Position numbers and translations under genes: made by a program. 64,000 nucleotides of DNA, taken from the NCBI GenBank assembly GCA_023267435.1, contig JAHFNH010000003.1:12717-76716 (forward strand). The letters run 5' to 3'. The stretch comes from Candidatus Nomurabacteria bacterium (GTDB lineage: Bacteria; Patescibacteriota; Minisyncoccia; Phycocordibacterales; UBA9973). Below are positions 27,879 through 44,910 of the stretch, one piece after another. The notes under the pieces were generated by a model, which saw only the letters and a list, made by a program, of their open reading frames with translations, did not search any database and was not told the DNA's origin. Within the stretch, counting starts at the first letter, position 1, and the number at the start of each line of letters is the position of its first letter.

Positions 27879-28490
27879 TTATTCTTTATCGGCAAATACT
27901 ACAAGTCTATAAGGACGGCCTTTCTTCACACTATTCCAAATCCCCTCACAAGTAACAAGATTCAGGTGTGCCTTTCCATCGGTTGAACCGAATACATCTG
28001 AAGCATCTGCGTTGGCATCATATTTTCTACTTTCTCGTACAACAAAAGAAATAGTTGCACCCTTATCATCTTCGACGATAATTTTGTCTCCATTTTTTAA
28101 TTTATATAAATTATCGAATACCGCTGGAATGCTGTTTTTCCAACCGAAGTGCCCGGCGATAACAGCACTGCCATTATCGCCAGGATGTGGTCCCAGGTCG
28201 AACCAAGCGACATTATCTGGACCCTTTGGCACTTCCATCGCCCCATCAGAAGTAAGACCCACATCTTCAACAACAGCATCGACATTAATATTCGGAATCT
28301 TTAGACGCACTGGCAACCCAAAATTATCTTTCCCCTGTCCCAAAGGAATAGTGGTTTTTACAACAAGCGGAATCAAACTAGTATGAGTTGAATCTTTAAA
28401 GAAAAGAAATAAAAATAAACCCAAGAAAATAAAGAATCCCAGAAAAATAATTATTAATATTCTTTTTGATAAATTTTTTGATAAATTCAT
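27879..28490 (-). CDS. sortase (class F-like transpeptidase)
   Basis: N-terminal TM anchor. Catalytic His in AVIAGHFGW and the TLXTC motif HLNLVTCEG. Confidence 0.8.
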   Translation of the reverse strand: MNLSKNLSKRILIIIFLGFFIFLGLFLFLFFKDSTHTSLIPLVVKTTIPLGQGKDNFGLPVRLKIPNINVDAVVEDVGLTSDGAMEVPKGPDNVAWFDLGPHPGDNGSAVIAGHFGWKNSIPAVFDNLYKLKNGDKIIVEDDKGATISFVVRESRKYDANADASDVFGSTDGKAHLNLVTCEGIWNSVKKGRPYRLVVFADKE

Positions 28491-28499
28491 ATATAACCT

Positions 28500-28540
28500 A
28501 AAGAGTCAGCCCAAGATTGGTCTGACTCTTTTTACTTTAA
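28500..28540. terminator. hairpin terminator-like element
   Basis: AAAGAGTCAGcccaagattggtCTGACTCTTTTTACTTT, lying between the adhesin and sortase genes. Confidence 0.45.
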
Positions 28541-28582
28541 AAACAGTGTAAAAATATTCGTTAACCTATCTTAATAGAGAAA

Positions 28583-30259
28583 CTATATTTTATGCTTTCT
28601 TAGAACCATAACAAATGAAATAGAAACTAATGCGAGCAAACCAAACAATAATAATATAACAACATTCCATGGAGCAGGAGGAAGTCCTGTCTTAGGAAGA
28701 CTAGGAGCGGCCACCACCACTGTAGCAAGAGAATAATCGATCGCAGTAAGACCATTTGCACTTCCCTCAGCAGTTCCAGTATTCGTAGTTGTCTGTGTAA
28801 GATTTGTTAAACAAGTGAAAGTCCATGTTTCATTACTTTCAAGTAAATCGTTTTTATTAAGATCTCCTGGGTGTCCTACGACACGGCCTGGTAGACCAGT
28901 ACATTTGTCATCAGTGATACTAACATTACTTAATGGCGCAGTACCAGGATTGGTTACGGTATATGTGTAAGTAACTGCTCCACCATTTGCAGGAAGAACA
29001 AAAACGTTTGGCTTTTTAACTACATGGATTAGTGGTGGTATTATTGGAACTCCGACAACGACAGTTGCATTTGCAGTATCGATTGCGGTAAAACCATTAG
29101 CATCACCAGTTGCAGTGACAGTATTGGTAGTGGTTTGGGAGAGTGTTGTGGTACAAGTGTATGTCCAAGTTTCATTGATATCAAGTTTGGAATCATTATT
29201 TGAATCACCTGAAATGAAACCTACAGTAGAACATGCATTGTCAGAAACAATAACATTACTCATTGGAACTGTTCCGATATTCTTAACTGTATAAGTATAA
29301 GTAACTGGTCCAGGTCCTAGAGGTAATGCTAATGGAGTTGGAACTTTTAAAACACTGATCAAAGGTGGAACAGATGCTGTTGTAAGAGGACCACCACCTT
29401 GGGGAGCTGTTGAGGGAGGGGTTGGAGGGGTCACATATACAGGAATTGAAACAGTATGACTACCAGCGCCGTCTAGTGTAACAGACGCCGTATTTGAAAA
29501 TGCTCTTCCGTGTAATGTTGCACCAGCTAATAAAGCAACGCTTGTTTGATCTAAAATATTTCCTTCAAAAACAGATGTTGTTTCAAGTGTAGTTGCACCA
29601 CCGACAACCCAAAAAATATTGGAAGCCTGTGCACCACCACTTAAAAGAATGCTTTTAGCAGAACTGATATCAAGAGTTCCTGGTACTCTAAATATCCATA
29701 CATCACTTGCTGTTCCTGTAAGATGAATATCGCCTGTAATAATTACATTACCAGGACCAGAAAATGAATAAACTCCAGGAGCGATTGTTAAACCAGCAAG
29801 ATCCCAAGTTCCAGATCCGGTTCCAATATTTGTAGCATCAAATGGTCGAACAGTATTATTGTTAGCATCAGTATAAGCTGCTCCTGCAGCACCGACAGCA
29901 TTATCTACAAAAGTTTTATTGGCTGGTACAGTATCACCCGGCATAGCACAAGCAGCAAAACCGGTAACATTATATCCGGAATCAACTTCGTATATTTTTC
30001 CACCGCCAGTCATTGATGTACATGTCAAACCAGCAATGTTTGAACCTGCAAGTGGACTCACTCCAACATTTCCAGTAATTATAGTTGATGCGGGAGTAGC
30101 ATCAGTTACACCTGCATATGACAAAATTGAGAAACTATCTGCTCCTCCAAGATTAACAGTTGCCGGGCTAGCAAAAGCGTGCGCTTTAGTAGAGCCAGTG
30201 AAATTAAATACAAGAGAAAACAAAACAACTAAGAAAGAAAACTTTTTAAGTATTTTCAT
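28583..30259 (-). CDS. LPXTG-anchored surface protein with an N-terminal ice-binding-like (DUF3494) beta-helix domain and two DUF11-like repeats
   Basis: Signal peptide. AQASNIFWVVGGATTLETTSVFEGNILDQTSVALLAGATLHGRAFS...VTLDG matches the DUF3494 consensus. Two TYTYTV(K/T)N.GT.P.SNV...ETWT(Y/F)TC repeats. C-terminal LPKTG at 28685-28699, followed by a hydrophobic helix and RKHKI. Confidence 0.85.
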   Translation of the reverse strand: MKILKKFSFLVVLFSLVFNFTGSTKAHAFASPATVNLGGADSFSILSYAGVTDATPASTIITGNVGVSPLAGSNIAGLTCTSMTGGGKIYEVDSGYNVTGFAACAMPGDTVPANKTFVDNAVGAAGAAYTDANNNTVRPFDATNIGTGSGTWDLAGLTIAPGVYSFSGPGNVIITGDIHLTGTASDVWIFRVPGTLDISSAKSILLSGGAQASNIFWVVGGATTLETTSVFEGNILDQTSVALLAGATLHGRAFSNTASVTLDGAGSHTVSIPVYVTPPTPPSTAPQGGGPLTTASVPPLISVLKVPTPLALPLGPGPVTYTYTVKNIGTVPMSNVIVSDNACSTVGFISGDSNNDSKLDINETWTYTCTTTLSQTTTNTVTATGDANGFTAIDTANATVVVGVPIIPPLIHVVKKPNVFVLPANGGAVTYTYTVTNPGTAPLSNVSITDDKCTGLPGRVVGHPGDLNKNDLLESNETWTFTCLTNLTQTTTNTGTAEGSANGLTAIDYSLATVVVAAPSLPKTGLPPAPWNVVILLLFGLLALVSISFVMVLRKHKI

Positions 30260-30371
30260 ATTTTACTATTTATTTTTAAAAACTATTATAATAGCTATAT
30301 TATAACCTTTTTAAAGATAACTTTGTTATATATATATATCCTGTGGATAAGTCATAAATAATAAAAATTGA

Positions 30372-30443
30372 GCCGTTGATCGGGATTGAACCGATGACCT
30401 CGATATTACCAATATCGTGCTCTACCAACTGAGCTACAACGGC
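30372..30443 (-). tRNA. tRNA-Thr (anticodon GGU)
   Basis: GCCGUUG-UA-GCUC-AGUUGGUA-GAGC-A-CGAUA-UUGGUAA-UAUCG-AGGUC-AUCGG-UUCAAUC-CCGAU-CAACGGC. Confidence 0.8.
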
Positions 30444-30508
30444 AGAATAGTAGCTAAAATTATAAAAATAATATAACTACTATTTAATTTGGTGATATTT
30501 ACCAAAAC

Positions 30509-30520
30509 AGCTACAACGGC
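30509..30520 (-). repeat. exact 12-nt duplicate of the tRNA-Thr(GGU) 5' end (GCCGUUGUAGCU), 66 nt upstream of the tRNA
   Basis: agctacaacggc occurs at 30432-30443 (within the tRNA) and at 30509-30520. Confidence 0.55.
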
Positions 30521-30570
30521 TAACACAAGATGAATACTACTATATTTACCTGTGTTTTTCAATTAAAATT

Positions 30571-31008
30571 TTATTGTGTTGAAGTGGATGCAGGAGCGGG
30601 ATTGGTTGGCATTGCTGGTCTGATTTGCACTGACTGAGCGGTTAAACTGCCATCTGGATTTGCTGTACCGGTAACGCTTACTTGTTTACCAACAACTAAA
30701 TCTGTCGATACTCCACTGACATTTTTTTCAATGGGAGTCTTGTCTGTATAAAAAATTATTTTAGAACTTCCGTCTCTAAGTTTTAGAGTAATACTTTGAG
30801 CGTCTTTAGAGAGAATTTCACCCACAGTCATTCCTCCAAAATTTCCACCATTCCTCATTCCACCAGCAGTACTTCTACCATTCAAACCAAAAGCTTGACT
30901 TCCCTGACCTCTAGCAGGTATTTGACTCTTACCATAAACCATACCTATATAAAACACTCCTACCAAAACTAAAATACCTATGACAACTAAACCAATTTTT
31001 TTATTCAT
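30571..31008 (-). CDS. small membrane-anchored protein with a Gly/Met-rich segment and a beta-rich domain (paralog of 34692-35213 and 12704-13243)
   Basis: One TM (IGLVVIGILVLVGVFYIGMVY), GGMRNGGNFGGM, then ...DLVVGKQVSVTGTANPDGSLTAQSVQIRPAMP. Confidence 0.65.
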   Translation of the reverse strand: MNKKIGLVVIGILVLVGVFYIGMVYGKSQIPARGQGSQAFGLNGRSTAGGMRNGGNFGGMTVGEILSKDAQSITLKLRDGSSKIIFYTDKTPIEKNVSGVSTDLVVGKQVSVTGTANPDGSLTAQSVQIRPAMPTNPAPASTSTQ

Positions 31009-31077
31009 ATGATTTTTAATAATTTTACTAATCTAATAATTTCGCCTCTTCGGCGAATCCGTCGATGAGACGGAAAT

Positions 31078-32301
31078 TTACTCATACCTAAGGGCATCGA
31101 TTGGATTTAAATTAGCCGCCCGACGCGCAGGATAATATCCAAAAACAATACCGATTCCAGCCGAAACCGCAAAAGCTAAAAGAACAGTGGGTAAAGAAAC
31201 TTGCGTTTGAATAATTCCAGAATATGTTACCGCCAGAGATATCAGCCACCCCAAAATAACACCTATCACACCACTGATAAACGTCAACATAACAGCCTCA
31301 AGTAAAAATTGAGTATTAATGTCTTTCTTTTTTGCACCGATTGCTTTACGTAAACCGATTTCTCTTGTACGTTCCGTAACGGTAGTCAGCATCATATTCA
31401 TAATTCCAATACCGCCAACCAAAAGAGAAATTCCAGCTACTGCTGCTAAAAAAAGCGTAAATGTACCCGTGACTGATGAAGCCGTAGCAATAATGTCTGC
31501 CTGATTTAATATATTAAAATCAGCTTTAGTAGGATCAGAAATATTGTGACGAATCAATAATAAATTTGTCACATCAGATTGTACTTGCGCTGACACATCA
31601 GAGCTTGTTGCCGAGATATCAATCTCGCTTAAATATTTATTTCCCGTAAGATATCTTTGAGCTGTGGTATAAGGAATAAAAATTGTATCATCACTATTAC
31701 TAAAACCAGAACCTCCTTTTGCTTTAGTTATACCAATAACAACATATTCACTTCCTGAAATACGAATCGTTTGACCAATAACACCTGTAACACCCACACC
31801 AAACAGATCATCCCTGGCAGTGGGTCCCAACACAGCAACTTTTGAACCACTTGTAATATTTTGAGTTGATAAAAAATCACCTTCATCAATAGATACATTT
31901 CGGACTGTAGAGTACGCTGGTTCTGTACCTATAATACTAGTATTTGTATTAGTGCCGGTACCGACAACTTGCTTACGCGAAGTTACTTCACGGACCACTC
32001 CAACCACATCAGAAATTTGAGACTCAATCGCATCAGCATCTTCTACTGTTAATGTCTGTGCTCCTCCACGTCCGGCACTTGGTCCACCGAAAGTGCGTGC
32101 AGCTCCAGGCATAACCATAACTAAGTTTGCACCAATAGACTGAATGCTTGAAGATATAGAATTCTGCGCACCTTGACCAATCGCAGTCATAGCAATAACA
32201 GAAGCTATACCGATTACAATTCCAAGCATCGTAAGTCCTGTACGTACTTTGTTGGCAAATAAAGCGCTAGATGTTTCACTTATGATATCTGATATTTTCA
32301 T
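31078..32301 (-). CDS. ABC transporter permease, MacB/FtsX-like family
   Basis: 407 aa. N-terminal TM, a periplasmic domain of about 200 aa, and three C-terminal TM helices. The start overlaps the ATPase stop by 4 nt. Confidence 0.85.
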   Translation of the reverse strand: MKISDIISETSSALFANKVRTGLTMLGIVIGIASVIAMTAIGQGAQNSISSSIQSIGANLVMVMPGAARTFGGPSAGRGGAQTLTVEDADAIESQISDVVGVVREVTSRKQVVGTGTNTNTSIIGTEPAYSTVRNVSIDEGDFLSTQNITSGSKVAVLGPTARDDLFGVGVTGVIGQTIRISGSEYVVIGITKAKGGSGFSNSDDTIFIPYTTAQRYLTGNKYLSEIDISATSSDVSAQVQSDVTNLLLIRHNISDPTKADFNILNQADIIATASSVTGTFTLFLAAVAGISLLVGGIGIMNMMLTTVTERTREIGLRKAIGAKKKDINTQFLLEAVMLTFISGVIGVILGWLISLAVTYSGIIQTQVSLPTVLLAFAVSAGIGIVFGYYPARRAANLNPIDALRYE

Positions 32302-33005
32302 ATGTTTTTTATAACTCTTTTTAAATGGCCATTCTCATTTTCAGTAAGTACGCCATCGCGAATAAATAAAATCCTATCGGCATGTTCAGCAATATATTGT
32401 TCATGAGTGATAAGTACGATTGTTCTGCCATGTTCTTTGTTTAATTTTTGAAAAGTGCCCAAAACTATTTCTCCTGTTTTTGAATCGAGGTTACCTGTAG
32501 GCTCGTCAGCTAAAATTAGTGACGGATTATTTACCAAAGCTCGTGCAATAGCAACACGTTGAATCTGTCCACCAGAAAGCTGATTTGAAAGATGATAGAA
32601 ATGCGATTCATTCAGACCCGCAGCAAAAAGGGCTTCTTTGGCGCGTTTTTCTCTTTCTTTTGTTTCTATTCCATCATAAACAAGCGGTAACATTACATTT
32701 CTGAGGACTGTAGTACGTGGTAATAAGTTGAATGATTGAAACACGAAACCAATTTTATCTTTGCGAATATCTGCTAGTTCATCATCTGAAAGAGTTGAAA
32801 CATCCTTGTCATCTAGAAGATACGTGCCACTCGTTGGATTATCCAATGCACCTAAAATATGCATAAGAGTCGACTTACCAGATCCAGAAGGTCCCATAAT
32901 AGCAACAAATTCTCCATCCTTTATAGTAAAGCTCACACCTTTAAGGGCCTGAAACTCAATGTCTCCAGATTTATATGTTTTTGTAATATCTTTTATTTCA
33001 ATCAT
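32298..33005 (-). CDS. ABC transporter ATP-binding protein (MacB/LolD-type)
   Basis: Walker [10 protein letters not shown], signature LSGGQIQR, Walker [12 protein letters not shown]. Confidence 0.9.
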
Positions 33006-33009
33006 AACT

Positions 33010-34686
33010 TTAATTACCTGGAATTCTTACTGCCCCACCTCCTCTGTTTCCACCAGCTCCACCGAGCAAACTAGATGTTGCTGTTTTTGCAGCCGTTGGT
33101 AATATTGTTCTTGTCACAATTTCATCTCCTTCTTTTATTCCAGAAACTATTTCAGTCTCTGAATTATTTGAAAGTCCTGTTGTTACAGTAATTTTATTCG
33201 GAATAATTGTCGAAATAGAACCTGGCAATCCATCTGTTGGTGCAGGTAGTGGTGCATCAAACATCTCAACATAACTTGAACCACCTTGTCTTTTCACTGC
33301 ACTGTTTGGTACTACTAAGACATCTTGTTTTACATTTGTGATAATAGAAGCTGAGACACTCATTCCGGGTTTTACCGTACTATCTTGATTATCAAAACTA
33401 ATTTTTACATTATAAGTCACAACTCCTTGCGTTACTGTACCTACAGTATCAATTTGTGCCACTTCTCCTGCAATTGAAAAATTCGGAATTGCATCAAAAG
33501 TAAGAGTAGCTTTTTGACCCAATTTTATCTTAGCTACATCTACCTCATTCAATGAGATAGTAGCCAATTGTTTAGTGGTAATGATCGTCCCTAAAATTGT
33601 TCCAGAACTTGCAGTTTCACCGACATTCACAGGAACACTTGCAACGGTACCTTCAAAAGGGGCAACGATGTTGTAATAAGATAGATTATCCCTGGCATCC
33701 TGTAAAGCATTTTCTTTTTGCTTTACTGTGAGTTGCGCTGTTTGTATATCAAGCACATCTGCACCGGATTGTAATTTACTCAACGCTTCTGTATTCTGAA
33801 TGATAGTTCTATCTGAATCTGTATTTACTTGAGCTTGATTTTGTAAAGTAAGCTGGTATGAATTATAACTTGCGCCGTAACTGCTTGCCTGAGTATTTGG
33901 TATTGCCACTGTCCACTCATTTATTCCACTGGAAGCATAATTGTTCGGAAACTGAATATATAGACCAAAAGTTCCTAAAGCAACAGGGGTAGTTGTATTT
34001 ACTGTACCGCTTCCATTTTCAAGGCCAGAAACTGAGAGATATGCTCCACTGCCACTATTATGAACAAGAATATCGTAACTTCCCTCCGTTGTTCCGGTGT
34101 AAGTTCCGCTAATTGTAGGAGCGGTGAAATTTGCGCTACTAGTTGAAGTAGATTTCGGAACAGCAACTATTCCGCTATTCAAAAAACTGCTGTGCGCATT
34201 TTTAACAACAAGATCTTGATTTTTCTTTGCATCTTGCGCAGCCGCAATAGCATTTTGATACTGAATAACAGATAATTTATCCGCTGGCTCTTGTAATTTT
34301 GCTAAAGAAAGATTGGCTGCATCAAGATTAATTTGCGCATCTCTAAGAGTTTTCTGAGCATCTTTACTGTCGAGAGAAAAAAGAAGTTTACCACTTCCTG
34401 CCTGATCACCTGGTTTGACATAAATATGAGTAATCGTACCAGAGACATTAGGTTTTAAATCAATCTGACTTGAAACGGAAACTTGTCCACTGCCGGTAAT
34501 GGAAGATACAATAGTTCCTTTAGTAACAGCTGACAAAACATATCGCGTATCCCCTGCGGTGCTAGTAATTTTTCCATAGCCCCAATACCCAACCCCAACA
34601 ACAATCAAAAGTATAACAATACTACTTATCAAGTGGTCAAGAGCATAATCTTTAATTTTTTGTAAATATGACATTATTTTTTCCAT
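33010..34686 (-). CDS. HlyD/MacA-family periplasmic adaptor (membrane fusion protein), long form with a Ser/Thr/Gly-rich insertion
   Basis: N-terminal TM, coiled-coil region (AQKTLRDAQINLDAANLSLAKLQ...), beta-barrel/lipoyl-like regions, and a Gly-rich C-terminal tail. Confidence 0.8.
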   Translation of the reverse strand: MEKIMSYLQKIKDYALDHLISSIVILLIVVGVGYWGYGKITSTAGDTRYVLSAVTKGTIVSSITGSGQVSVSSQIDLKPNVSGTITHIYVKPGDQAGSGKLLFSLDSKDAQKTLRDAQINLDAANLSLAKLQEPADKLSVIQYQNAIAAAQDAKKNQDLVVKNAHSSFLNSGIVAVPKSTSTSSANFTAPTISGTYTGTTEGSYDILVHNSGSGAYLSVSGLENGSGTVNTTTPVALGTFGLYIQFPNNYASSGINEWTVAIPNTQASSYGASYNSYQLTLQNQAQVNTDSDRTIIQNTEALSKLQSGADVLDIQTAQLTVKQKENALQDARDNLSYYNIVAPFEGTVASVPVNVGETASSGTILGTIITTKQLATISLNEVDVAKIKLGQKATLTFDAIPNFSIAGEVAQIDTVGTVTQGVVTYNVKISFDNQDSTVKPGMSVSASIITNVKQDVLVVPNSAVKRQGGSSYVEMFDAPLPAPTDGLPGSISTIIPNKITVTTGLSNNSETEIVSGIKEGDEIVTRTILPTAAKTATSSLLGGAGGNRGGGAVRIPGN

Positions 34687-34691
34687 AACTA

Positions 34692-35213
34692 TTATTGATT
34701 AGAACTATTAATTTGAGTTGGAACGGTCGAGGTAGTAGAAGGAAAAATAGGAGGAAAAGGCATAATTCTTATTAACTTTGCTTCAATCTGCCCTTGTGAA
34801 TTTGGAGAACCGACAACAACTACATTTTCATCAACCTTTAGATCGTTAATGGAAATACTATCTCTGACATCTATTATTTTTGTATCATTACTTGTAATTA
34901 CCACTTTTTCAGTATTATCCCTATCTTGAACTATAATATTTGGCAATTCAATTTTTATAATTTTACCTATAGCTCCATGGGCATTAGGAAAATTTCCCAT
35001 CATGCCACCAAAATAACCACGTCCATTCATCATACCAAAATTACGCCCATAATTCTCCCCCCAATCACGACCAAATGAAGCTTTATGAAAACCTACATAT
35101 ACTCCGGCTTGAAAGATAAGTGAAACAACAACAAGAATTCCCACAATCAACAAAACTCCAAAAACTTTTTTTGATTCTAAAACTTTTCTAATATTTTCTT
35201 TAATTTCTTTCAT
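34692..35213 (-). CDS. small membrane-anchored protein with a Gly/Met-rich segment (paralog of 30571-31008)
   Basis: One TM, FGMMNGRGYFGGMMGNF, then ...VVVVGSPNSQGQIEAKLIRIMP. Confidence 0.65.
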   Translation of the reverse strand: MKEIKENIRKVLESKKVFGVLLIVGILVVVSLIFQAGVYVGFHKASFGRDWGENYGRNFGMMNGRGYFGGMMGNFPNAHGAIGKIIKIELPNIIVQDRDNTEKVVITSNDTKIIDVRDSISINDLKVDENVVVVGSPNSQGQIEAKLIRIMPFPPIFPSTTSTVPTQINSSNQ

Positions 35214-35223
35214 AAAAATAAAA

Positions 35224-35625
35224 CTATGCTATTAATAATTTATGACGAGTTCGAATATTTCGCGCCATATAACGTAAGGATAATACAAATAAAAAAACTA
35301 AGGATAAAGACAAAATTAAATTTGTCATAGGTAATGATTCAATCATAGATAAAATGATTTCTTTCCAAAAATAAACAGCCTTGCTATTAGAAAACATTAG
35401 GGATAAATAATCATAAAAGCCAGAACTATAAAAATCAGAAACTAACTGCCTAATAAGCACAAAAAAGCCTAAAAGAGAAAATATTCCTGTAACAGAATAA
35501 ACCCATATTTTAATGTTATTATTTCTTTTTTCCTTAATAGAGATAGCGTTGAAAATATTCTCCGAAAGACTGCTCTCAGGACAAAACACGGCCTTTTGAA
35601 AAATTTTAATTAAATTCTTATCCAT
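35224..35625 (-). CDS. small two-TM membrane protein, putative anti-sigma factor
   Basis: 133 aa, lying 17 nt downstream of the ECF sigma gene. The call rests on position plus topology only. Confidence 0.4.
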   Translation of the reverse strand: MDKNLIKIFQKAVFCPESSLSENIFNAISIKEKRNNNIKIWVYSVTGIFSLLGFFVLIRQLVSDFYSSGFYDYLSLMFSNSKAVYFWKEIILSMIESLPMTNLILSLSLVFLFVLSLRYMARNIRTRHKLLIA

Positions 35626-35642
35626 ATCTCTATATACGTAGA

Positions 35643-36215
35643 CTAATTTGATTTTGGTGCAATCATCTTTCTTATTTGCAAAATAGCTCGAAGATGATGG
35701 CTTTTTATTGTGTTTAATGGTCTCTCAAGAACCTGAGATATTTCATCAAAAGTCATTTCTTCTTGATAATGAAGAATTAAAACTGTTTGAAATTGTTCCG
35801 GTAATTTTTCTAATAATGAATTCAATAAATCTACATCTTGTAATTTCTGCAGTATCTCATCGGGTAAAATTGCCTCATCCTTTATGGTTTCTGAGAAATT
35901 ATTTTCTTCATTATCCAAACTAGAAAACGGAATGGAGTTTTTTCTGCGCAAGAAATCAATAACCGTATTTCTAGCTATAGTAAAAATCCAGGTTTTAAAA
36001 CTGGATTTGTTTTGATTAAACTTTTCCAAACTTTTCCAAACTTTAACAAAAATTTCTTGAGTAATATCATCAGCTTCGTTATTTCCGACAAAACGCCGAA
36101 CAAAATTATAAATTTGTGGAGTATATTTATCAATAAGCTCCTTCAATGCAGTGTCATCGCCAGAGACATATAAACTAATTAATTCTGAATCTTTATCCAT
36201 TGTAATTTTAGGCAA
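35643..36215 (-). CDS. ECF-type RNA polymerase sigma-70 family factor
   Basis: Region 2 (DDITQEIFVKVWKSLEKF...FKTWIFTIARNTVIDFLRR) and region 4 (MTFDEISQVLERPLNTIKSHHLRA). Confidence 0.85.
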   Translation of the reverse strand: MPKITMDKDSELISLYVSGDDTALKELIDKYTPQIYNFVRRFVGNNEADDITQEIFVKVWKSLEKFNQNKSSFKTWIFTIARNTVIDFLRRKNSIPFSSLDNEENNFSETIKDEAILPDEILQKLQDVDLLNSLLEKLPEQFQTVLILHYQEEMTFDEISQVLERPLNTIKSHHLRAILQIRKMIAPKSN

Positions 36216-37740
36216 ATCCTGGAAAGAAATCTTTGTGAATATGGCTTGATTTCACTCCCATACCGAGAAGCATGTTTTCAAAAGTTTCGCACATGCCATG
36301 TGTTCCGGAAAGATAGAAGTGTCTTTCTAAGAAATCAGGAACTTCTTGTTTAACCATTTTCGCATCTACAAAACCTGTTTTACCATGCCATATTTCACCT
36401 GGTGGTACTGGATCCGTCACTGTATAAACAATTTTAAAGCCAAGTTCTACGGCTGATTGATCTAAAATATTTTCATAAGCAACATCAGCTGAAGTTCGAT
36501 TTGAATAAAACATGACTACATCCCTTTCTTGTTTTTTATCTATCATATACTTAACCATGCTTCTAAAAGGAGTGACACCGATTCCTCCGGCCATGAAAAC
36601 AAGTTTCTTATTTACATCTTTCGGTAAGACGAATTCCCCTGCCAGTTGCGAAGCGATGATAGTGTCCTGACCCTCTTTCATATTTAAAAGCTTGTTCTTG
36701 AAACTGCTACCGTTCGCATAAAATTTTATACCTATTCTGATTTCTCTTTCAGTAGGAGAAGAAGCTATTGTGAAATATCTTCGATTTCCTCGAGAGTCCG
36801 GCCACTTGTGACCGAGAGTCCATTCCAAATACTGCCCTGGTCTAAAATAAAACGGATGATCCGGAGAAAATACGAAATCATAAGTATTCTGCGCGACTTT
36901 TATTTTTTGCTTCAATACTAAGACAAACTTTTGTTTTGGGCTGACAATATAGGAAAATACGTTCCCAACTAAGAGAGATAACTCAGGCGTGGAATATAAC
37001 GATCCGATGTGCATAATTGGAGCAGACAAGAATCCGCAGATTGATCCATATAACATTCGTAAAATTCTTGTCGGAGGAGTAGTAAGAGGTTCTGTCAGCA
37101 TAACAAATGCGAAAAACAAAAGTGGAGAATAAAAAATAGATCTGACAAGAATGTTAAAACCACTGGCAAAATCAAAAGCTTGAGTAGCAACAATAGTAAT
37201 CAGAGCTATGGCAAAAAAAGTAAGAACCATATCGAATCTTCTCACCTTTCTTGTGATGAGCATTCCTCCAATAATAACGAAGGGTGCCATTGCTAAAGTT
37301 CCTACCCACCAGCTGGCGGATTGGCCCATAGTGATGGAAGTAAGTGCCACAGAAAGTGCAACTGGATTGAAAACATGCTTATTATCGAGCGCAAAAATAT
37401 ATTTTGATGCCATAGCCCAGACGGAAACCCAGAATAAAAATCCCCAATAAGGAAGACTGACAAAATCCTTTGCAGGGGTGACTATCAAAACTAAAATAAA
37501 AGCAGTGATAAAAGCGGATTCAACATTTGTTGGAACGCCTAAAAATGAAGCAAATATTTTATTTGAGATAAAACAGATTGCGGTGACAAAAACAACTTCT
37601 GAAAAAAACATAACTGGAGTGAAAGGCAAGATTCCAAAATAAGAAAGTATTAATCCTCCAGCAATCATAAAGAGTAATGCGTAAAGCACTAATCGATACA
37701 TTGTTACTTTGTTTAAAAGATTATCTATTATTTTTATCAT
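36208..37740 (-). CDS. membrane oxidoreductase: N-terminal polytopic domain fused to a ferredoxin-NADP-reductase-like FAD/NAD(P)-binding domain
   Basis: About 260 aa of TM domain. RRYFTIAS is an RxYS FAD motif. GGIGVTPF is the NAD(P)-binding GGxGxxP motif. Confidence 0.75.
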   Translation of the reverse strand: MIKIIDNLLNKVTMYRLVLYALLFMIAGGLILSYFGILPFTPVMFFSEVVFVTAICFISNKIFASFLGVPTNVESAFITAFILVLIVTPAKDFVSLPYWGFLFWVSVWAMASKYIFALDNKHVFNPVALSVALTSITMGQSASWWVGTLAMAPFVIIGGMLITRKVRRFDMVLTFFAIALITIVATQAFDFASGFNILVRSIFYSPLLFFAFVMLTEPLTTPPTRILRMLYGSICGFLSAPIMHIGSLYSTPELSLLVGNVFSYIVSPKQKFVLVLKQKIKVAQNTYDFVFSPDHPFYFRPGQYLEWTLGHKWPDSRGNRRYFTIASSPTEREIRIGIKFYANGSSFKNKLLNMKEGQDTIIASQLAGEFVLPKDVNKKLVFMAGGIGVTPFRSMVKYMIDKKQERDVVMFYSNRTSADVAYENILDQSAVELGFKIVYTVTDPVPPGEIWHGKTGFVDAKMVKQEVPDFLERHFYLSGTHGMCETFENMLLGMGVKSSHIHKDFFPGFA

Positions 37741-38474
37741 ATATATTTTTGAAAACCTTCCGTCATAGTCGCTACGCCATTTTTATCAATCATATATCCT
37801 TCAAAACCGGAAAGATTATTTATAAAATTAATTCCCTCCCGCCCCATCACGAAGGCTGCTGTGGCAAATCGATCTGCTTCATAGACATTCGGACCTATTA
37901 CTGTCAGGCTGACAACCTCATCAAGAGGATCATTTTTATCTTTTGGATTATAAATATGCTTCCCTCTGATATACGTGCCACTCGTAGCAATTCCTTTATC
38001 TTTTAAGTATACAACTTTTATAACCTGTTTTAAATCAAAAGGATTCGCTATGCCTATCGCCCAAGGCTTATCTTCTTTATTTTTACCTTCCACTTCAATA
38101 TCCCCTCCTGCTTCAACATAAAAATCTTTGATTCCATTTTTCCTGAGCATTTCGGCAGCATTATGTATCGCCCAGCCTTTCACTGTCCCTGATGGGTCGC
38201 AAAATCCATCATTCATGATATCGAAAAATCCATTAGTTTCTTTTTTTGTTTCTTCAGATAATCTAAGAACTTCTTTCATGTCCTCACTATATTCTCTCTT
38301 TTTAATCTTATCTTTATTTATTTTTGTTATTTCACTCGTATCTTTGTAGATAGAAAATTTTTCATCTATATAAGTGAAATAATTAAAAACATTTTCAAAT
38401 ATTTCTTTATCAATTGATTCGTCTGGAATTTCTATTATTACAGGCATGCCCATAATAATTCTTGTTTCTTTCAT
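37737..38474 (-). CDS. apbE: FAD:protein FMN transferase (ApbE family)
   Basis: GFFDIMNDGFCDPSGTVKGWA...GIATSGTY are ApbE signature motifs. 245 aa. Confidence 0.8.
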   Translation of the reverse strand: MKETRIIMGMPVIIEIPDESIDKEIFENVFNYFTYIDEKFSIYKDTSEITKINKDKIKKREYSEDMKEVLRLSEETKKETNGFFDIMNDGFCDPSGTVKGWAIHNAAEMLRKNGIKDFYVEAGGDIEVEGKNKEDKPWAIGIANPFDLKQVIKVVYLKDKGIATSGTYIRGKHIYNPKDKNDPLDEVVSLTVIGPNVYEADRFATAAFVMGREGINFINNLSGFEGYMIDKNGVATMTEGFQKYI

Positions 38475-38475
38475 A

Positions 38476-39117
38476 TTATTGTTTTGCTTGTGTTAATGCA
38501 TAAGCCAATGATTGCATGAATGCATCGCTAGTATATGTCGCACCGGAGACTCCGTTAATATTCGCAGACTGTGCAGAAATGGCTTCTTGTTTTAAGACAG
38601 GCATTGAATAATCATATATCTGCTGCGATCTTCTTGGACCTGGTTCAGTGGATGGATATGTAATGTTGGAAAGTTTTCCATTTGATATTATGGCTGTAAC
38701 TTTTACATAACCGGAATACGCATATTCATTGCTGCCAACGTAAGTTCCATCTGCATAAAGACCCTTAGGCTTAGTCACAGGTGGTGTCGTAGTAGGAGTA
38801 GTTTGAGTTGTAGGTTTTGTGGTTGGTGTGGTTGTCGGTTTAGTATTTGTTTTTGGAGTAGTTTTAGTTGGAGGAATAAAATCACCTTCTTCGTCAAATG
38901 GATTACTATCTTCATCACCTCCTGAAATACTATTAGGTACCTGATATACCTGAGTGCTGGAAGATGTTGTATTTAAAGCATCTGTCGTAGTCTTCTTTCC
39001 CACTTCAGTGACAGGAACATAAGGAGCCACGTAACTCAAACTACCATTGGGGCCGTAATAAACGACATACAACGCGAAACTTCCTATAACAAAAGATGAT
39101 AGTAAAAACTTTTTCAT
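38476..39117 (-). CDS. membrane-anchored extracytoplasmic FMN-binding domain protein (predicted ApbE substrate)
   Basis: N-terminal TM, Thr/Pro-rich linker, and an FMN_bind domain with GVSGATYTS, the flavinylation [S/T]GA[S/T] motif. Confidence 0.75.
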   Translation of the reverse strand: MKKFLLSSFVIGSFALYVVYYGPNGSLSYVAPYVPVTEVGKKTTTDALNTTSSSTQVYQVPNSISGGDEDSNPFDEEGDFIPPTKTTPKTNTKPTTTPTTKPTTQTTPTTTPPVTKPKGLYADGTYVGSNEYAYSGYVKVTAIISNGKLSNITYPSTEPGPRRSQQIYDYSMPVLKQEAISAQSANINGVSGATYTSDAFMQSLAYALTQAKQ

Positions 39118-39212
39118 TGTTTAAAATTTAATATAAAACTTATACCTATATTTTATCATACTACATACGCTGAATGAAGTTTTCATGAAGCAATATTCAG
39201 TTACAAATATTC

Positions 39213-39677
39213 TTAAGAAACAGTAATCCCCTCCTCTTTTAGAGTCTTTTCTATGCGAAAAATAAGAAAACCAATTCTGCCCAACATTATTCCAGCAATA
39301 AGACTCGAGGTGAAAGCGGTCAATAATACTCCACGAAACCAATGTTCTAAAATTCTTTCTCTAAATAATGTAAAAAGAAGATAAGGCAATAAAAAAGAGA
39401 CGCCCATTTTATCCATGCGAGAAACAACTTTTTTATTTTCTGGATGCCAATGAACAGAAGAAATTCGTCCTGTTGCGATGCCTATGCCAATACCAATTAA
39501 AAATCCTACACTAGCCAAAAATATACCGATCTCATTTTCAAAAACGTTGTAAGAAATAAGAGAAATCATAACAAAAAAAATAACAGCAAAATAAGCTAAT
39601 CTTATTTTCAGATCCCTGTGTAAATGCCTTCGAGCTATGTTATGATGTTTTTTAATTTTTTTAAATAATACTTTCAT
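39213..39677 (-). CDS. small polytopic membrane protein
   Basis: 154 aa with 3-4 TM helices. Confidence 0.45.
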   Translation of the reverse strand: MKVLFKKIKKHHNIARRHLHRDLKIRLAYFAVIFFVMISLISYNVFENEIGIFLASVGFLIGIGIGIATGRISSVHWHPENKKVVSRMDKMGVSFLLPYLLFTLFRERILEHWFRGVLLTAFTSSLIAGIMLGRIGFLIFRIEKTLKEEGITVS

Positions 39678-40851
39678 TTTTTTTAATCATTCTAGGTTGC
39701 AGAAAAATAAAGACACACAATGCGACAAGTGTCGTTATTACCGCGAAACCGAAAGCATAAGTTGGATGCAACAACCACAATGCTCCGGCAATTACTGAAG
39801 CCGGCAAATATATCAAACCATTTACAAAATTCAACATTCCTATCGCTGTCGCTCTTCTGTCTTTTTCTAAGTCAGTCACAAATGCTTTGCTTTGTGCTTC
39901 ATCGATACTGTAAAAAATTCCAAACAATATAAATAAAGCTATTACTTCCCATTTATGCGTCGCAAACACAAAACCTAGTGACATCAAAGCGTATATGATA
40001 TAACCCAGTATAATTATATACTTTCTGCCAATAAAGTCCCCCAGCTTGCCTATCGGAGCTGAAACAATAACGAAACTAATATTAAATAATGCGTAAAGCA
40101 AAACTACATCCTTAATCGCAAAACCGAGAGTATAGGCTCGAAGTAAAAGAAAACCGAAACTAAAATATGCTAGAGAAAAAATTCCAGCTGGAATAAGATA
40201 GAATTTAAATTCCTTACTCAATGTCCCCCATGCTTTAAAAATATTTTCTCTCTCGTGCGGTGTGCCGGGATGATCATCCATTAATGAAAGAATAATAACA
40301 GCAATCACTGCCGAAATAGCCGCCATAATAAAAAGAATACGAAAAGCGTGCATATTCGTGCCGAAGTGATTTAATAAAAGATAAGCAACAATCGGACCTA
40401 GTATTGCTCCTGATTTGTCTAGTGCTTTATGCACACCGAAAGCGTATCCCCTATTGGATTCTTCGGCGACAGAAGAAAGCCAAGCATCTCTCGGTGGACC
40501 ACGGAAACTTTTTCCTAAACGTTCAATAATTCTAAACGAAGCAACAGCTGAAACTGAAGTAATGACGAGTAATAATATTTTTGCTAAAGTTGAAAAACCG
40601 TAACCGAGAATGGTTAAAGGTTTTCTTTTGCCAGACCTATCAGAAAGCCAACCAGCAAAATAATCCAATGATGATGCAAAAAAATCTGAAAAACCTTCCA
40701 CAAGGCCAAGCAATGCCGAAGAAGCACCGAGTACTACTGTAAAAAATATCGAGAATACTGAAAAAATAGCCTCTGAACTGACATCAGTAAAAAAGCTGAC
40801 AATACCAAGCTTCAATACATCCGGGTGAACATTAAATAATCTTTTTTTCAT
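39661..40851 (-). CDS. MFS transporter
   Basis: 396 aa with 12 predicted TM helices. MFS motif A-like GWLSDRSGKRKP. Confidence 0.8.
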   Translation of the reverse strand: MKKRLFNVHPDVLKLGIVSFFTDVSSEAIFSVFSIFFTVVLGASSALLGLVEGFSDFFASSLDYFAGWLSDRSGKRKPLTILGYGFSTLAKILLLVITSVSAVASFRIIERLGKSFRGPPRDAWLSSVAEESNRGYAFGVHKALDKSGAILGPIVAYLLLNHFGTNMHAFRILFIMAAISAVIAVIILSLMDDHPGTPHERENIFKAWGTLSKEFKFYLIPAGIFSLAYFSFGFLLLRAYTLGFAIKDVVLLYALFNISFVIVSAPIGKLGDFIGRKYIIILGYIIYALMSLGFVFATHKWEVIALFILFGIFYSIDEAQSKAFVTDLEKDRRATAIGMLNFVNGLIYLPASVIAGALWLLHPTYAFGFAVITTLVALCVFIFLQPRMIKKNESII

Positions 40852-40866
40852 GCTGTTCTAAATTAA

Positions 40867-42057
40867 TTACAGATTAGATATTCGTTCACCGAATTTCAAA
40901 CTATATGCTTTGTTTTGGTATCTCTTAGTAATTACGTAATTCATAAGCCAAGTTATACAAAACAAAATAGCAAAATATATTGCCCCTGCTTTACTTATTC
41001 GAGGTAGATTATTTGCAGACAAATAACCTAATATTCCTGAAATAACTCCAATACTTGTAATTGTTTGCAAAGTTTTTAAATTGTTGCTTGTGCTTTGATT
41101 TTTTATTTCCACCAGATTGCTGATCGCGGAAGAAAGATAATCAGCAGTCATTTTCCAAATCTCCTTGATATAAGAAAGAGTATCTGTCAGCGTTTCAAAC
41201 TTATATTCAAAAAGAGCCACTAATTCTTTTTCAATTTCAAGATGCTTGGCAATAGAAGAACGCGTACTAATATAAGAATTCATTTGATTGATTCTGTTGC
41301 TGATAAGGCTGATTGTCTTTTGATATCCATCAAGCTTGCCTCTTATATCATCTACATCTTTTCCTTTAATATTTTTTGCTTCTTTTATGCCGGAAATCTC
41401 TTCCCAAATTGTTCTATGGATATGTAAATATTTCTCAAGCTGATCTTTGAATTCTCGAAAGAAAATCTGCATCTCAATTAGATCATTCAAGTATTTGCCA
41501 GCTTCTTTCGGAGCGGAAATAAAGATATATTGCGGAGTTTTATAAACAGTTATGCCACCGCTTGAAATTTTGGTATAAATTTCGCCAAACAAAGATTCAT
41601 CTAAAACAAAATCTTTATCTTTTTCATTTAAAAAAGAAACTGCGACAGGATGGTCTGTCTTTATGTTTGCCAGTACCTTTGGAGTCGGAGCACCGAGAGA
41701 AAAAATATATGAAATTGCCGGACTAAGTTTTTCCTGAAAATATTTCTCCAGCATATCTTGGGCAGCAGAAATATTTTCAGAAAAAATTTCTAAAATATAA
41801 AGCCCATCTTCATAATATCGAATCTCTATTCCAGAAGATGTTATTGCTTTTATATATTCAAAATATCCGGATTCGCGGGAAACACTGGTCAGATCAAGAT
41901 TTTTCTGAATTTTTTTTAATTCTTCCTTTGATAAATTTAAATTTGAAGTACCATGCATGAACAAACTGTATATCTCGCTTAAATGCAAAGTTGTCCGTTG
42001 ATACCAACCTCCATAAGTTACCTTGTATTTATTTTTTGAAACAGCTTTTGTTTTCAT
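40867..42057 (-). CDS. hypothetical protein with a long cytoplasmic coiled-coil-rich domain and two C-terminal TM helices (CorA-like topology, but no GMN motif)
   Basis: 396 aa. The C-terminus has IGVISGILGYLS and AIYFAILFCITWLMNYV. Confidence 0.45.
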   Translation of the reverse strand: MKTKAVSKNKYKVTYGGWYQRTTLHLSEIYSLFMHGTSNLNLSKEELKKIQKNLDLTSVSRESGYFEYIKAITSSGIEIRYYEDGLYILEIFSENISAAQDMLEKYFQEKLSPAISYIFSLGAPTPKVLANIKTDHPVAVSFLNEKDKDFVLDESLFGEIYTKISSGGITVYKTPQYIFISAPKEAGKYLNDLIEMQIFFREFKDQLEKYLHIHRTIWEEISGIKEAKNIKGKDVDDIRGKLDGYQKTISLISNRINQMNSYISTRSSIAKHLEIEKELVALFEYKFETLTDTLSYIKEIWKMTADYLSSAISNLVEIKNQSTSNNLKTLQTITSIGVISGILGYLSANNLPRISKAGAIYFAILFCITWLMNYVITKRYQNKAYSLKFGERISNL

Positions 42058-42080
42058 AAATTTATTATAACATAAAACTT

Positions 42081-42458
42081 TTATTCAATTCTTAAGAAGA
42101 AACCGTCACAATTTATATCTTTACAATTACATAATATTTTAATACCTTCGATTTCTGTCAGATTATAATTCACTGTAATTTCTTCTCCCTCTTTTATTTC
42201 CTTAACAGATTTTAAAAATGGCTCTATTTCATTGGTAATTAATTGTGCATTAGGATTACACGAATGATTAATCCAATTCAAAACATTTGGGTCATTTACC
42301 CATCCTAATCTCCCAATCTTTGCCCAATGTGGTTGTGGTTGATATGAAATGTCACTAATGGGAATAAAATAAAATTTCTCATCTTCATTTATTTCTTTTT
42401 CAGAAAAAACACCACTACCTTGTATTTTAGATGGTCTAATTTTTAGAAATTGATGCAT
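42081..42458 (-). CDS. SET-domain protein (putative protein lysine methyltransferase)
   Basis: GSGVFS, NHSCNPN, EEITVNY and the post-SET Cys cluster CNCKDINCDG. Confidence 0.7.
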   Translation of the reverse strand: MHQFLKIRPSKIQGSGVFSEKEINEDEKFYFIPISDISYQPQPHWAKIGRLGWVNDPNVLNWINHSCNPNAQLITNEIEPFLKSVKEIKEGEEITVNYNLTEIEGIKILCNCKDINCDGFFLRIE

Positions 42459-43104
42459 ATTTATTTAAAGTTTCTTTAATAAGCAAATCAAAAGTATCTA
42501 TCTTTTTAATATCTTTCCAATCATTAAGGATTAGTGAAAGCTCAGTGCATGCAACTAAAATATATTCCGCTTGATTATAATATTTGTCTATCAAAGATAC
42601 TAACCAGACTTTTTGTTCTTGGCTTATATTTCCTGCATTATATTGATTAATAATCTCCCCCATTTTTTGTTTTTCTGTTGATTGAAGTTGTATGATTTTA
42701 TCACCACTCAAATCAAAAAGTTTTTCTTCAATAGAATTTGGGCTAGCTAAGAAAAGAATCCTATTCTCTCCCAACCGATTTTTTACATTTGAACTTATAT
42801 CTAAAATAGGCTTGTTAATCTTAGTATTAAAATAATTCAGATAAATAAATGCTGTATTGCAAACCACAACAATAAAATCACTCTCTTTTTCTAAAAATTT
42901 TATGCCTTCAATATATACACCCAATTTCTGTTCATTTTCTCCTGAAGTTAATTCAGGTGCTGGAATACTATTTATTATAATTCTTGGAAATTCAATATTA
43001 TTTACTGGATGAAACTTTTCCTTGAAAGAAGAAATGAATTTTTCATAGAAAACAGCAGATGATTCAGGTCCAATACCTCCAAGAATTCCTATTGTTTTAG
43101 ACAT
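42436..43104 (-). CDS. Asp/Glu racemase family protein
   Basis: MSKTIGILGGIGPESSAVFYEK...VVVCNTA are typical aspartate racemase motifs. Confidence 0.75.
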   Translation of the reverse strand: MSKTIGILGGIGPESSAVFYEKFISSFKEKFHPVNNIEFPRIIINSIPAPELTSGENEQKLGVYIEGIKFLEKESDFIVVVCNTAFIYLNYFNTKINKPILDISSNVKNRLGENRILFLASPNSIEEKLFDLSGDKIIQLQSTEKQKMGEIINQYNAGNISQEQKVWLVSLIDKYYNQAEYILVACTELSLILNDWKDIKKIDTFDLLIKETLNKYASISKN

Positions 43105-43162
43105 AAAGAAATTATACCAATATAGAATTAAAAAGTCCTTGTGTTAAATACATAGGAGTTTC

Positions 43163-43793: not shown

Positions 43794-43802
43794 AATGTTT
43801 TA

Positions 43803-44901: not shown

Positions 44902-44910
44902 AATTACGAT

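Follow-up and report, generated by a model that had tools for sequence, protein, structure and literature searches.

Among the described systems closest to the locus studied here, the 'NQR/RNF-like system' of Méheust et al. 2021 (eLife, PMC8238504) consists of an NqrB/RnfD N-terminal domain (PF03116) fused to an NqrF-like domain (PF00175) and clustered with ApbE or FMN_bind, in which electrons were proposed to flow one way only, from NAD(P)H to an extracytosolic FMN domain. In that work 127 clusters were counted, and the Candidate Phyla Radiation (CPR) was called under-represented, after a filter for predicted signal peptides. Huang et al. 2024 (PMC10979944) modelled a two-subunit complex and noted that the NqrB-type flavinylation threonine is not conserved; both papers consist of genome analysis and structure modelling, and neither reports experimental work or a known electron acceptor. 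Pumps of the MacB family, on the other side, export antibiotics, antimicrobial peptides or toxins (PMC5985334, PMC5768738), and yknWXYZ forms a core sigmaW operon in Bacillus subtilis (PMC3498285; PMC4887032). Here we analyse a stretch of 64,000 nucleotides (the window: positions 12,717 to 76,716 of contig JAHFNH010000003.1, Candidatus Nomurabacteria bacterium, assembly GCA_023267435.1), in which ten minus-strand genes, g1 to g10 in transcription order from 39117 down to 30571, bring a flavinylation trio (g1-g3) together with an extracytoplasmic function (ECF) sigma factor and its companions (g4-g6) and with a MacB-type exporter (g7-g10). To our knowledge no flavinylation module belongs to the sigmaW regulon, and a search of the literature on DUF5666, or on work linking CPR, ECF sigma, MacB and ApbE, gave nothing relevant. 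The ten genes are three separable conserved modules and not one machine, and we favour, with moderate confidence, the reading that trio and exporter are co-regulated members of one sigmaW-type ECF envelope-stress regulon. The types of trio and exporter are already known; the new element is their recurrent, facultative linkage in Patescibacteria together with a shared ECF-type promoter motif.

The linkage was followed from both sides. In a forward sample, 80 species-level loci (L001-L080) anchored on g3 were searched with all window proteins, and all 1427 neighbouring open reading frames (ORFs) were clustered without labels; a reverse sample comprised 80 metagenome loci anchored on g9 and six long contigs anchored on g10 homologs. 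After the trio itself, the most frequent neighbour families in the 80 forward loci were ECF sigma factors and ABC ATPases (19 loci each), HlyD adaptors (14), DUF5666 proteins (13), MacB permeases (12) and g5-like proteins (9), followed by histidine kinases (9), MFS transporters (7) and DedA/VTT, MarR and P-type ATPase genes (6 each), with no unrelated family in more than nine loci. In the 34 loci outside the Chloroflexi that extend for 6 kb or more to either side, a MacB permease was present in 7, a sigma gene in 11 and either of them in 12; the chance expectation, an inferred value that assumes at most three MacB modules per ~1-Mb genome and is not corrected for phylogeny, is about 2 of 34 loci with a MacB module within 10 kb and less than 1% with one immediately adjacent. 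No more than 400 bp separate the module from the trio in L001, L034, L025, L036, L058, L019, L014 and L054. Linked loci fall at no fewer than eight separate positions of the g3 neighbour-joining tree, none of them in the Chloroflexi clade.

Conservation of the ten-gene order had been put forward by an initial annotation of this DNA as a check on the idea of a single unit. The order trio-sigma-antisigma-g6-HlyD-ABC-MacB-g10 is indeed kept in L001, L161/L162 and L034; elsewhere the genes are rearranged, and at least six arrangements can be told apart. In the second of them the sigma gene precedes the trio and the anti-sigma gene follows it, with the remaining genes up to g10 behind; this form is contiguous in L169, where the trio is nested between sigma and anti-sigma, and carries two to three inserted envelope genes in L002 and L003. 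Trio and module are convergent in L025, L036 and L031, and at 5 kb in L163; the exporter stands upstream of the trio in L014, L019 and L058; and the trio is followed by HlyD-MacAB in L054 and L058, via a two-component system in L028 and after 3 kb in L075. L072 has sigma-antisigma-g6 directly before the trio and no exporter, and a more distant ECF sigma with an anti-sigma-like gene of 234-408 aa directly precedes the trio in L016, L030, L031, L038, L053 and L063, and also in L008, L046 and L163. Complete sigma-to-g10 modules without a trio occur as well (L084-L086, L165-L167), as do partial ones (L087, L089, L092, L164, L168). The linkage thus recurs in a way that inheritance from one event does not explain, yet it is facultative, because each module is self-sufficient and the exporter module is mostly found without the trio.

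The two modules also share a promoter-like motif. Inspection of upstream regions revealed TGCACC-N16/17-CGTATATA just before g5 in the window, at the same place in L001, and in non-coding DNA in L002 and L003, and in L054 the same motif type stands ahead of both g1 and g7. Written as the pattern [N]G[N]A[AC]C-N16/17-CGTA[TC], it has 78 matches in 2.65 Mb and precedes 11 of 63 g1 genes and 4 of 6 g5 genes, as against 9 of 1030 other genes (Fisher p=1.1e-9 and 2.2e-7); controls with a reversed -10 element or wrong spacers gave 0-2 matches in all. Of these nine other genes, three (L031, L034, L075) hold the anti-sigma position without a label, another four (two DUF5666, one PG_binding_1, one PAP2 phosphatase) encode envelope proteins within linked loci, and two (L053, L061) belong to no group. 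The site is conserved in L001, L161, L002, L003, L169, L165, L166 and L084-L086: it follows the sigma gene in all three complete metagenome modules (L084-L086) and in L165 and L166, and it occurs twice in L169, once within the 3' end of the sigma gene, immediately ahead of FMN_bind (4330-4361), and once ahead of the anti-sigma gene (7263-7295). In L164 it precedes MacB. Within the 64-kb window the loose pattern has two matches, of which only the one at g5 carries TGCACC, the other (21486-21513) lying inside an ORF. Alignment of 14 sites from g5 and g1 contexts showed GCACC and CGTAT to be invariant. The B. subtilis sigmaW promoter consensus is TGAAAC-N16-CGTA, which the motif resembles, and several CPR sites read exactly TGAAAC-N16/17-CGTAT. 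The distance from the end of the motif to the start codon is 2-12 nt in 14 of 28 sites, and this suggests that mRNAs begun at the motif, including a g5-g10 transcript, would be leaderless or near-leaderless.

L028 has a response regulator and a histidine kinase (6920-8596) in place of the ECF sigma, between trio and HlyD-MacAB. A shared GTTCTCAGTT element is found there upstream of both g1 and g7 (2600-2650, 8590-8640), and it may be a response-regulator site.

Table 1. Features of the ten-gene string and of its upstream neighbours, with positions in the window (aa, amino acids; TM, transmembrane; MFP, membrane fusion protein).
Feature	Position	Strand	Evidence or remark
g1, NqrC/RnfG-like FMN_bind subunit	38476..39117	minus	Pfam PF04205, E=4.8e-8
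SGAT flavinylation motif, g1 residues 191-194	38536..38547	minus	read from sequence
g2, ApbE FAD:protein FMN transferase, 245 aa	37737..38474	minus	Pfam PF02424, E=4e-42
g3, NqrB/RnfD-like polytopic domain fused to cytosolic FNR-like FAD/NAD(P)H domain	36208..37740	minus	PF03116 + PF00970 + PF00175
g4, ECF (group IV) sigma, SigW-like	35643..36215	minus	Sigma70_r2 + r4_2
Predicted ECF-type promoter TGCACC-N17-CGTAT(ATA)	35634..35661	minus	overlaps last codons and stop of g4; ends 9 nt before g5 ATG
g5, 133 aa, TM segments 40-58 and 103-121	35224..35625	minus	TM prediction
g6, membrane-anchored Gly-rich linker and DUF5666-type OB-fold	34692..35213	minus	paralog of g10
g7, long HlyD/MFP adaptor, YknX/MacA-like, 558 aa	33010..34686	minus	TIGR01730 154 bits; HlyD_D23, HlyD_3
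g8, MacB/LolD-type ABC ATPase	32298..33005	minus	ABC_tran E=4e-35; Walker A GPSGSGKS, signature LSGGQ
g9, MacB-type permease	31078..32301	minus	MacB_PCD PF12704 E=1.6e-47; FtsX PF02687 E=3.8e-22
g10, membrane-anchored OB-fold paralog of g6	30571..31008	minus	DUF5666 match
154-aa membrane protein	39213-39677	minus	upstream syntenic gene, between MFS gene and g1
MFS transporter	39661-40851	minus	MFS_1, E=1e-38; upstream syntenic gene

The ORF listing of the window places the ten genes exactly at these coordinates, separated from g1 to g10 by a 1-nt gap, overlaps of 4 and 8 nt, gaps of 17, 10, 5 and 4 nt, a 4-nt overlap and a 69-nt gap. Genes, strand, coordinates and junction lengths were those of the initial annotation, and every one of its domain calls was upheld by Pfam and NCBIfam. 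Its 8-nt overlap between g3 and g4 is present as given and hinges on a TTG start; the ATG at 36200, which leaves a 7-nt spacer, is probably the true start of g4.

As read from hydropathy and composition, g1 begins at its N-terminus with a signal-anchor helix (residues 4-22), continues as ~100 aa of Thr/Pro-rich linker and ends in the FMN_bind domain, in which Thr194 is the predicted site of FMN attachment, the SGAT motif class being taken from the ApbE-substrate literature (PMC8238504). SGAT or SGAS is found in 59 of 64 g1 homologs, and 58 of 64 have an N-terminal hydropathy of at least 1.8. The ApbE protein g2 shows no signal peptide, TM segment or lipobox, and its ORF cannot be extended upstream; the same holds more widely for ApbE encoded beside g3: of 67 homologs, 66 lack a hydrophobic segment at the N-terminus and 66 have 241-296 aa. 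In g3 the Pfam families NQR2_RnfD_RnfE (31.7 bits, cut-off 27.7), FAD_binding_6 and NAD_binding_1 (60.6 bits) were recognised. Its membrane domain spans about residues 1-270, with TEPLTTPP at 216-223, and the FNR motifs are RRYFT (320-324) and GGIGVTP (385-391). The profile of the membrane domain matches the RnfD chain 8ahx_D (E=1e-5; TEPLTTPP against TDPVTSP) in an alignment that covers the C-terminal half only and not the NqrB-type flavinylation site, and the structural matches of the FNR part are NqrF and cytochrome b5 reductase. No [ST]G[AS][TS] motif occurs in the g3 membrane domain (first 280 residues) of any of 79 homologs. The order g1-g2-g3 is kept in about 60-66 of the 80 loci, and neither NqrA/D/E nor RnfA/B/C/E is encoded among the ten genes and the eight flanking genes scanned.

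By their predicted domains, g1-g3 have the gene content of the NQR/RNF-like system. The likening of the first three genes to ApbE/FMN_bind/NADH-oxidoreductase and Nqr/Rnf-like electron transfer was sound (PF03116/RnfD match, FMN_bind, ApbE), and the profiles place the FNR-like membrane protein g3 in that system and not in a well-characterised unrelated family; the trio is not an undescribed assembly, since Méheust et al. 2021 (PMC8238504) gave its definition and Huang et al. 2024 (PMC10979944) a model of it. The g3 family has more than 7900 proteins and at least 600 matches in species representatives, mostly CPR plus a Chloroflexi clade, which suggests that the NqrB/FNR fusion is far commoner in CPR than reported; the low CPR count in PMC8238504 is probably due to its signal-peptide filter. 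The assembly GCA_036169735.1 holds two copies of the trio, one in a ten-gene string (L161, JAVHNX010000007.1; g3 copy 77% identical to that of the window) and one on a 3-kb contig (L029, JAVHNX010000023.1; 53% identical), which may reflect either true paralogy or bin contamination.

The sigma factor g4 contains regions 2 and 4 only, no region 3 being detected, and scores 126 bits with TIGR02937 (cut-off 43). Its scores with the SigW models (95-111 bits) are below every SigW equivalog cut-off (TIGR02948 94.8 against 243; PRK09641 111 against 209), and its predicted resemblance to SigW is one of type only, not of orthology. The next gene, g5, is a putative anti-sigma factor by its position, and a gene of ~130-146 aa stands at the same place after the sigma gene in L001-L003, L025, L031, L034, L036, L075, L165, L166 and L169. 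In both paralogs, g6 and g10, a TM helix at the N-terminus is followed by a disordered, Gly-rich linker and a small beta-barrel, with fold matches that include SilB-C/CusF-like and CcmE OB-folds; g6 has no direct family match in Pfam or NCBIfam. The two keep different company: g6 goes with the sigma/anti-sigma pair, as in the exporter-free string of L072, and g10 with HlyD-ABC-MacB (L014, L019, L028, L058, L163-L168). A 243-aa anti-sigma-like family follows the ECF sigma ahead of the trio or of the exporter, and comparison by hhalign shows its C-terminal domain to be a homolog of the g6/g10 barrel (probability 83%, E=8.5e-6). This homology points to g6 as a probable sensor or co-anti-sigma domain, and g5 and g6 together may be a split version of the 243-aa type of sensor.

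The linkers of 22 g6/g10 homologs are rich in Gly, Arg, Asn and Gln, with variable Met, and Met-richness is a feature of the window genome. The two anchored proteins had been annotated as Gly/Met-rich paralogs: paralogy, anchor and Gly-richness stand, and the Met-rich character is confined to this genome. Handling of Cu/Ag through Met-rich linkers was accordingly rejected as a trait of the family, and the Cu/Ag idea built on the composition of these proteins has lost its basis.

From their sequences, g7-g10 make up a YknXYZ/MacAB-like exporter with an OB-fold paralog. The adaptor g7 has an N-terminal TM segment, a Ser/Thr/Gly/Asn-rich insert of ~120 aa (residues ~165-290) and a Gly-rich C-terminal tail, GGAGGNRGGGAVRIPGN, like the linkers of g6 and g10, and the Pfam domain Beta-barrel_YknX is present in its close homologs. 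The best NCBIfam matches of g8 are the ATPase part of MacB and LolD. In the permease g9, MacB_PCD lies between TM1 (residues 23-41) and TM2, the C-terminal TM cluster covering residues 270-386, and its orthologs in trio-linked modules are 49-88% identical, or 50-88% when aligned with MAFFT. Neither a TolC-like exit duct nor YknW is encoded in the string or in the scanned flanks, two DUF5666 OB-fold proteins accompanying the pump instead. The comparison of the second half with sigmaW-controlled YknXYZ efflux was thus apt, YknX-, YknY- and YknZ-like parts being present together with an ECF sigma.

Stress and redox genes recur in these neighbourhoods. MsrA/MsrB genes abut the trio in five loci, co-directional in L163 (14457-15453) and L079 (7343-8273), convergent in L023 (4845-5777) and L039 (11549-12481), and also in L044 (413-943); L163 carries the string sigma-antisigma-trio-MsrA-MsrB. 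These trio-adjacent MsrA/MsrB proteins have no signal peptides and are probably cytosolic, co-regulated gene products rather than the acceptor. DedA/VTT with GT4, PAP2, PG-binding, PspC/PadR, a PrsW-type protease, glutaredoxin and Redoxin are found as well, and the predicted functions of these neighbours fit envelope or oxidative-damage stress better than respiration. The pair of DedA/VTT and GT4 glycosyltransferase recurs beside the sigma module (L002:7437-9602, L025:17232-18858, L036:17177-18803), and in L002 it is inserted, with a cytidylyltransferase, between the trio and the anti-sigma gene. Cupredoxin-like genes lie near module or trio in 5 of 160 loci (L086, L098:12367-12669, L099:15026-15325, L072:6270-6830, L009:7896-8165). 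In L086 (7182-9111) two genes convergent to g10 occupy the place that the trio has in other loci: one encodes a NOX/ferric-reductase-like protein with TM and FNR parts, split by a stop, and the other a cupredoxin-like protein with a membrane anchor. Taken with Nramp and P-type ATPase neighbours, these are anecdotal hints of metal or redox chemistry.

From these elements we infer the following mechanism. Cytosolic NAD(P)H would reduce FAD on the FNR domain of g3, and the electrons would cross the membrane through its NqrB/RnfD-like domain to reach FMN attached covalently by ApbE (g2) to Thr194 of the tethered g1, which would in turn reduce an acceptor outside the membrane. The sigma factor g4 would be held by the two-TM anti-sigma g5, with the tethered OB-fold of g6 as the probable extracytoplasmic part of the sensor; under stress the anti-sigma would let go of the sigma, which would then fire TGCACC-N17-CGTATA promoters. 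In the window the promoter in the last codons of g4 would drive g5-g10, the trio being probably co-transcribed with the sigma gene, and in many relatives the same promoter would drive the trio directly. The exporter g7-g10 would expel a membrane- or wall-active compound. In such a division of labour the trio would supply reducing power outside the membrane and the exporter extrusion, both as parts of a co-regulated defence.

Several points speak against a common regulon. No canonical ECF motif is found upstream of g1 or g4 in the window, L001 and L161, and for this reason ECF control of the window trio and autoregulation of the sigma are unsupported in this genome; the predicted promoter itself is known as a sequence motif alone. 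In g5 there is no Pfam or NCBIfam match and no detectable anti-sigma or ZAS domain. ApbE carries no recognisable export signal, yet its substrate domain on g1 is predicted to lie outside the membrane, a puzzle exposed by this analysis as to where and when flavinylation would take place. The chance expectation for the linkage rests on assumed gene densities, and from the exporter side a trio lies within 10 kb in 1 of ~13 informative loci (L163 only). The initial annotation had treated the two halves as one unit, which holds insofar as they are recurrently linked and the second half ranks at the top of the neighbours of the trio, and does not hold as an obligate association, the exporter standing without the trio in ~12 of 13 reverse-sampled loci. 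Its further suggestion that the ECF sigma controls both modules agrees with the same motif before both modules in relatives, with sigma and exporter genes as top neighbours and with a linkage that survives rearrangement, and fails to extend to the trio of the window, which has no canonical ECF promoter.

It may be asked whether there is any functional tie at all, the modules being independent units in a gene-dense, largely co-directional small genome and their arrangement inherited within a small clade. The minus-strand run is much longer than the ten genes, exporter modules mostly stand alone, the trio of this lineage lacks the ECF motif, and the window, L001 and L161 share a wider synteny, flanking genes included, and count as one event. 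We nevertheless regard mere neighbourhood as unlikely, since the sigma and exporter families are the top-ranked neighbours of the trio over 80 species-level loci, linkage is seen in at least six rearranged forms and at least eight places of the tree, the trio of L169 is nested between sigma and anti-sigma, and the same rare motif precedes both modules. At the other extreme, trio and pump could be one physically coupled machine for reduction and export or detoxification, in which the wire would reduce a Cu, Ag or Fe ion, a quinone or a disulfide peptide toxin and the OB-folds would pass product or substrate to HlyD-MacB, in the manner of CusF/CusB. OB-fold proteins flanking an HlyD-family adaptor, their SilB-C/CusF-like and CcmE fold matches, the Met-rich linkers of the window, the few cupredoxin-like genes, the recurrence of Nramp and P-type ATPase genes nearby and the replacement of the trio in L086 by a different NAD(P)H-dependent membrane reductase would all agree with such a machine. 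The richness in Met is not conserved, however, the linkers of the family being rich in Gly, Arg, Asn and Gln; no metal-binding motif was seen to be conserved, the neighbours with a link to metals are few and anecdotal, and each module is mostly found without the other, which makes a coupled machine distinctly improbable.

A more elaborate version, an integrated envelope-defence device peculiar to CPR, would have the tethered FMN protein reduce a toxic oxidant, metal or disulfide peptide on the surface of the cell, the DUF5666 OB-folds feed the product or damaged target to HlyD-MacB, and the OB-fold of the anti-sigma sense the same ligand; we rate this proposal as quite doubtful, and if true it would be a mechanism of reduction-coupled extrusion without described counterpart. 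Finally, the homology to NqrB/RnfD, NqrC/RnfG and NqrF, and the VIT1 iron transporters reported in 6 NQR/RNF-like clusters (PMC8238504), could be taken to mean that the trio is a bioenergetic or iron device unrelated to stress, whether as a minimal ion pump of the Nqr/Rnf type or as an extracellular, NAD(P)H-dependent Fe(III) reductase, next to which the sigma and exporter genes would be irrelevant. This we consider very improbable: no NqrA/D/E or RnfA/B/C/E genes are nearby, no iron transporter adjoins the window's copy of the trio, regulators (ECF sigma, two-component, MarR) along with envelope or Msr genes predominate among the neighbours, and an ECF-type motif precedes the trio in 11 of 63 loci. 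The reading as co-regulated members of one ECF envelope-stress regulon is the one that we retain.

As to the wider setting, the window has a GC content of ~34%, and the best-matching relatives are 'Minisyncoccia' and 'Paceibacterota' metagenome-assembled genomes, in keeping with a position of the window in Patescibacteria (CPR). The order of the MFS gene and the 154-aa gene upstream of the trio is common to the window, L001 and L161/L162, and both genes are probably co-transcribed with the trio in this lineage. The gap upstream of g1 is 12 nt in L001 and L161/L162 as against 95 nt in the window, where it carries a 71-nt lineage-specific insertion, absent from L001 and L161; this region was rejected as a conserved promoter of the window's trio, containing only a weak TGCTTC-N17-CGTATG. 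Because the minus-strand run extends from 27879 to 44483 and the upstream gene lies 12 nt from g1 in the closest relatives, neither the co-directionality of the string nor its boundary at 39117 is special. Further upstream, a small SET-domain protein (42081-42458, 125 aa, PF00856, E=6e-10), unusual for so small a genome, is encoded beside an Asp/Glu racemase-family gene, and 43105-43802 and 44484-45724 contain no ORF of 120 aa or more; the only Rfam matches there, both sub-threshold, are at 44755-44899 (NrrF 29 bits, ncr1175 27 bits). Downstream, a tRNA-Thr (30370-30443) stands between g10 and one to two large surface proteins of the Ice_binding/DUF11/DUF7507 kind, anchored by a C-terminal TM segment, together with a sortase (27879-30259; L001:17828-21528; L161:17755-21467), which are kept in close relatives. 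The 69-nt gap between g9 and g10 (31009-31077) can form two adjacent GC-rich hairpins (minimum free energy -19.1 kcal/mol, z=-2.8); they were rejected as a conserved element, because only the window and L001 have them and L161, L002 and L169 do not, which makes them lineage-specific, and as a classical terminator, for want of a T-run. Neither an FMN riboswitch nor any other structured RNA was found in the string, Rfam at E<=1 returning two tRNAs and sub-threshold noise, and generic scans of the window for sigma70 promoters and terminators were uninformative, with counts equal to those of shuffled sequence.

CPR/Patescibacteria lack respiratory chains. For the predicted NAD(P)H-driven outward electron wire in these organisms, the linkage to an ECF sigma/anti-sigma pair and to a YknXYZ/MacAB-like pump, the shared motif and the MsrA/B neighbours point to an envelope-stress rather than a respiratory context, the first physiological context that related genomes suggest for an Nqr/Rnf-like electron-transfer system. 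The promoter motif further provides a concrete handle for experiments and for the prediction of regulons in uncultured CPR genomes.

Several known systems can be compared with the locus. The Listeria proteins FmnB/PplA/Ndh2/EetAB carry out flavin-based extracellular electron transfer via Ndh2 and quinone. As proposed here, an ApbE-family enzyme flavinylates a surface-tethered FMN_bind protein and electrons from cytosolic NADH reach acceptors outside a monoderm cell; the membrane step differs, a quinone-independent NqrB-like/FNR fusion standing here in place of Ndh2 and quinone, and FmnB is an exported lipoprotein whereas g2 has no export signal. MsrPQ performs extracytosolic methionine-sulfoxide repair, and MsrPQ and MsrQ-like flavinylation-associated systems have in common with our proposal that cytosolic reducing power is delivered to the envelope under stress to repair oxidised proteins; they differ in that neither an MsrP nor an MsrQ homolog is found here, nor Msr genes in the window. 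With sigmaW-RsiW/YknWXYZ of B. subtilis, known for resistance to SDP toxin, the locus has in common the predicted logic of an ECF sigma with a membrane anti-sigma, the same promoter type, and a YknX-like adaptor, YknY-like ATPase and YknZ/MacB-like permease in a single-membrane organism. It departs from it in having two tethered DUF5666 OB-fold proteins instead of a YknW (Yip1-type) gene, a g5 without recognisable ZAS or anti-sigma domain, a g4 below every equivalog cut-off, and a predicted promoter that lies between the sigma and anti-sigma genes and not upstream of sigma. MacAB-TolC of E. coli and Spr0693-0695 of S. pneumoniae (PMC5985334, PMC5768738) likewise combine a permease of MacB_PCD+FtsX type with an HlyD-family adaptor and a MacB-type ATPase, separate or fused, and differ from the present pump in its lack of a TolC-like partner, in its 558-aa adaptor with low-complexity insert and Gly-rich tail, and in its extra OB-fold proteins. 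The closest counterpart of the trio is the NQR/RNF-like system, with the same g1-g3 gene content, no other Nqr/Rnf subunits, the NqrB-type flavinylation site equally absent and the same proposed electron flow. The trio differs from it in an ApbE with no recognisable export signal, and in its setting: beside the trio lie an ECF sigma and a MacB exporter, neither of which is linked to the system in the papers that describe it (PMC8238504, PMC10979944).

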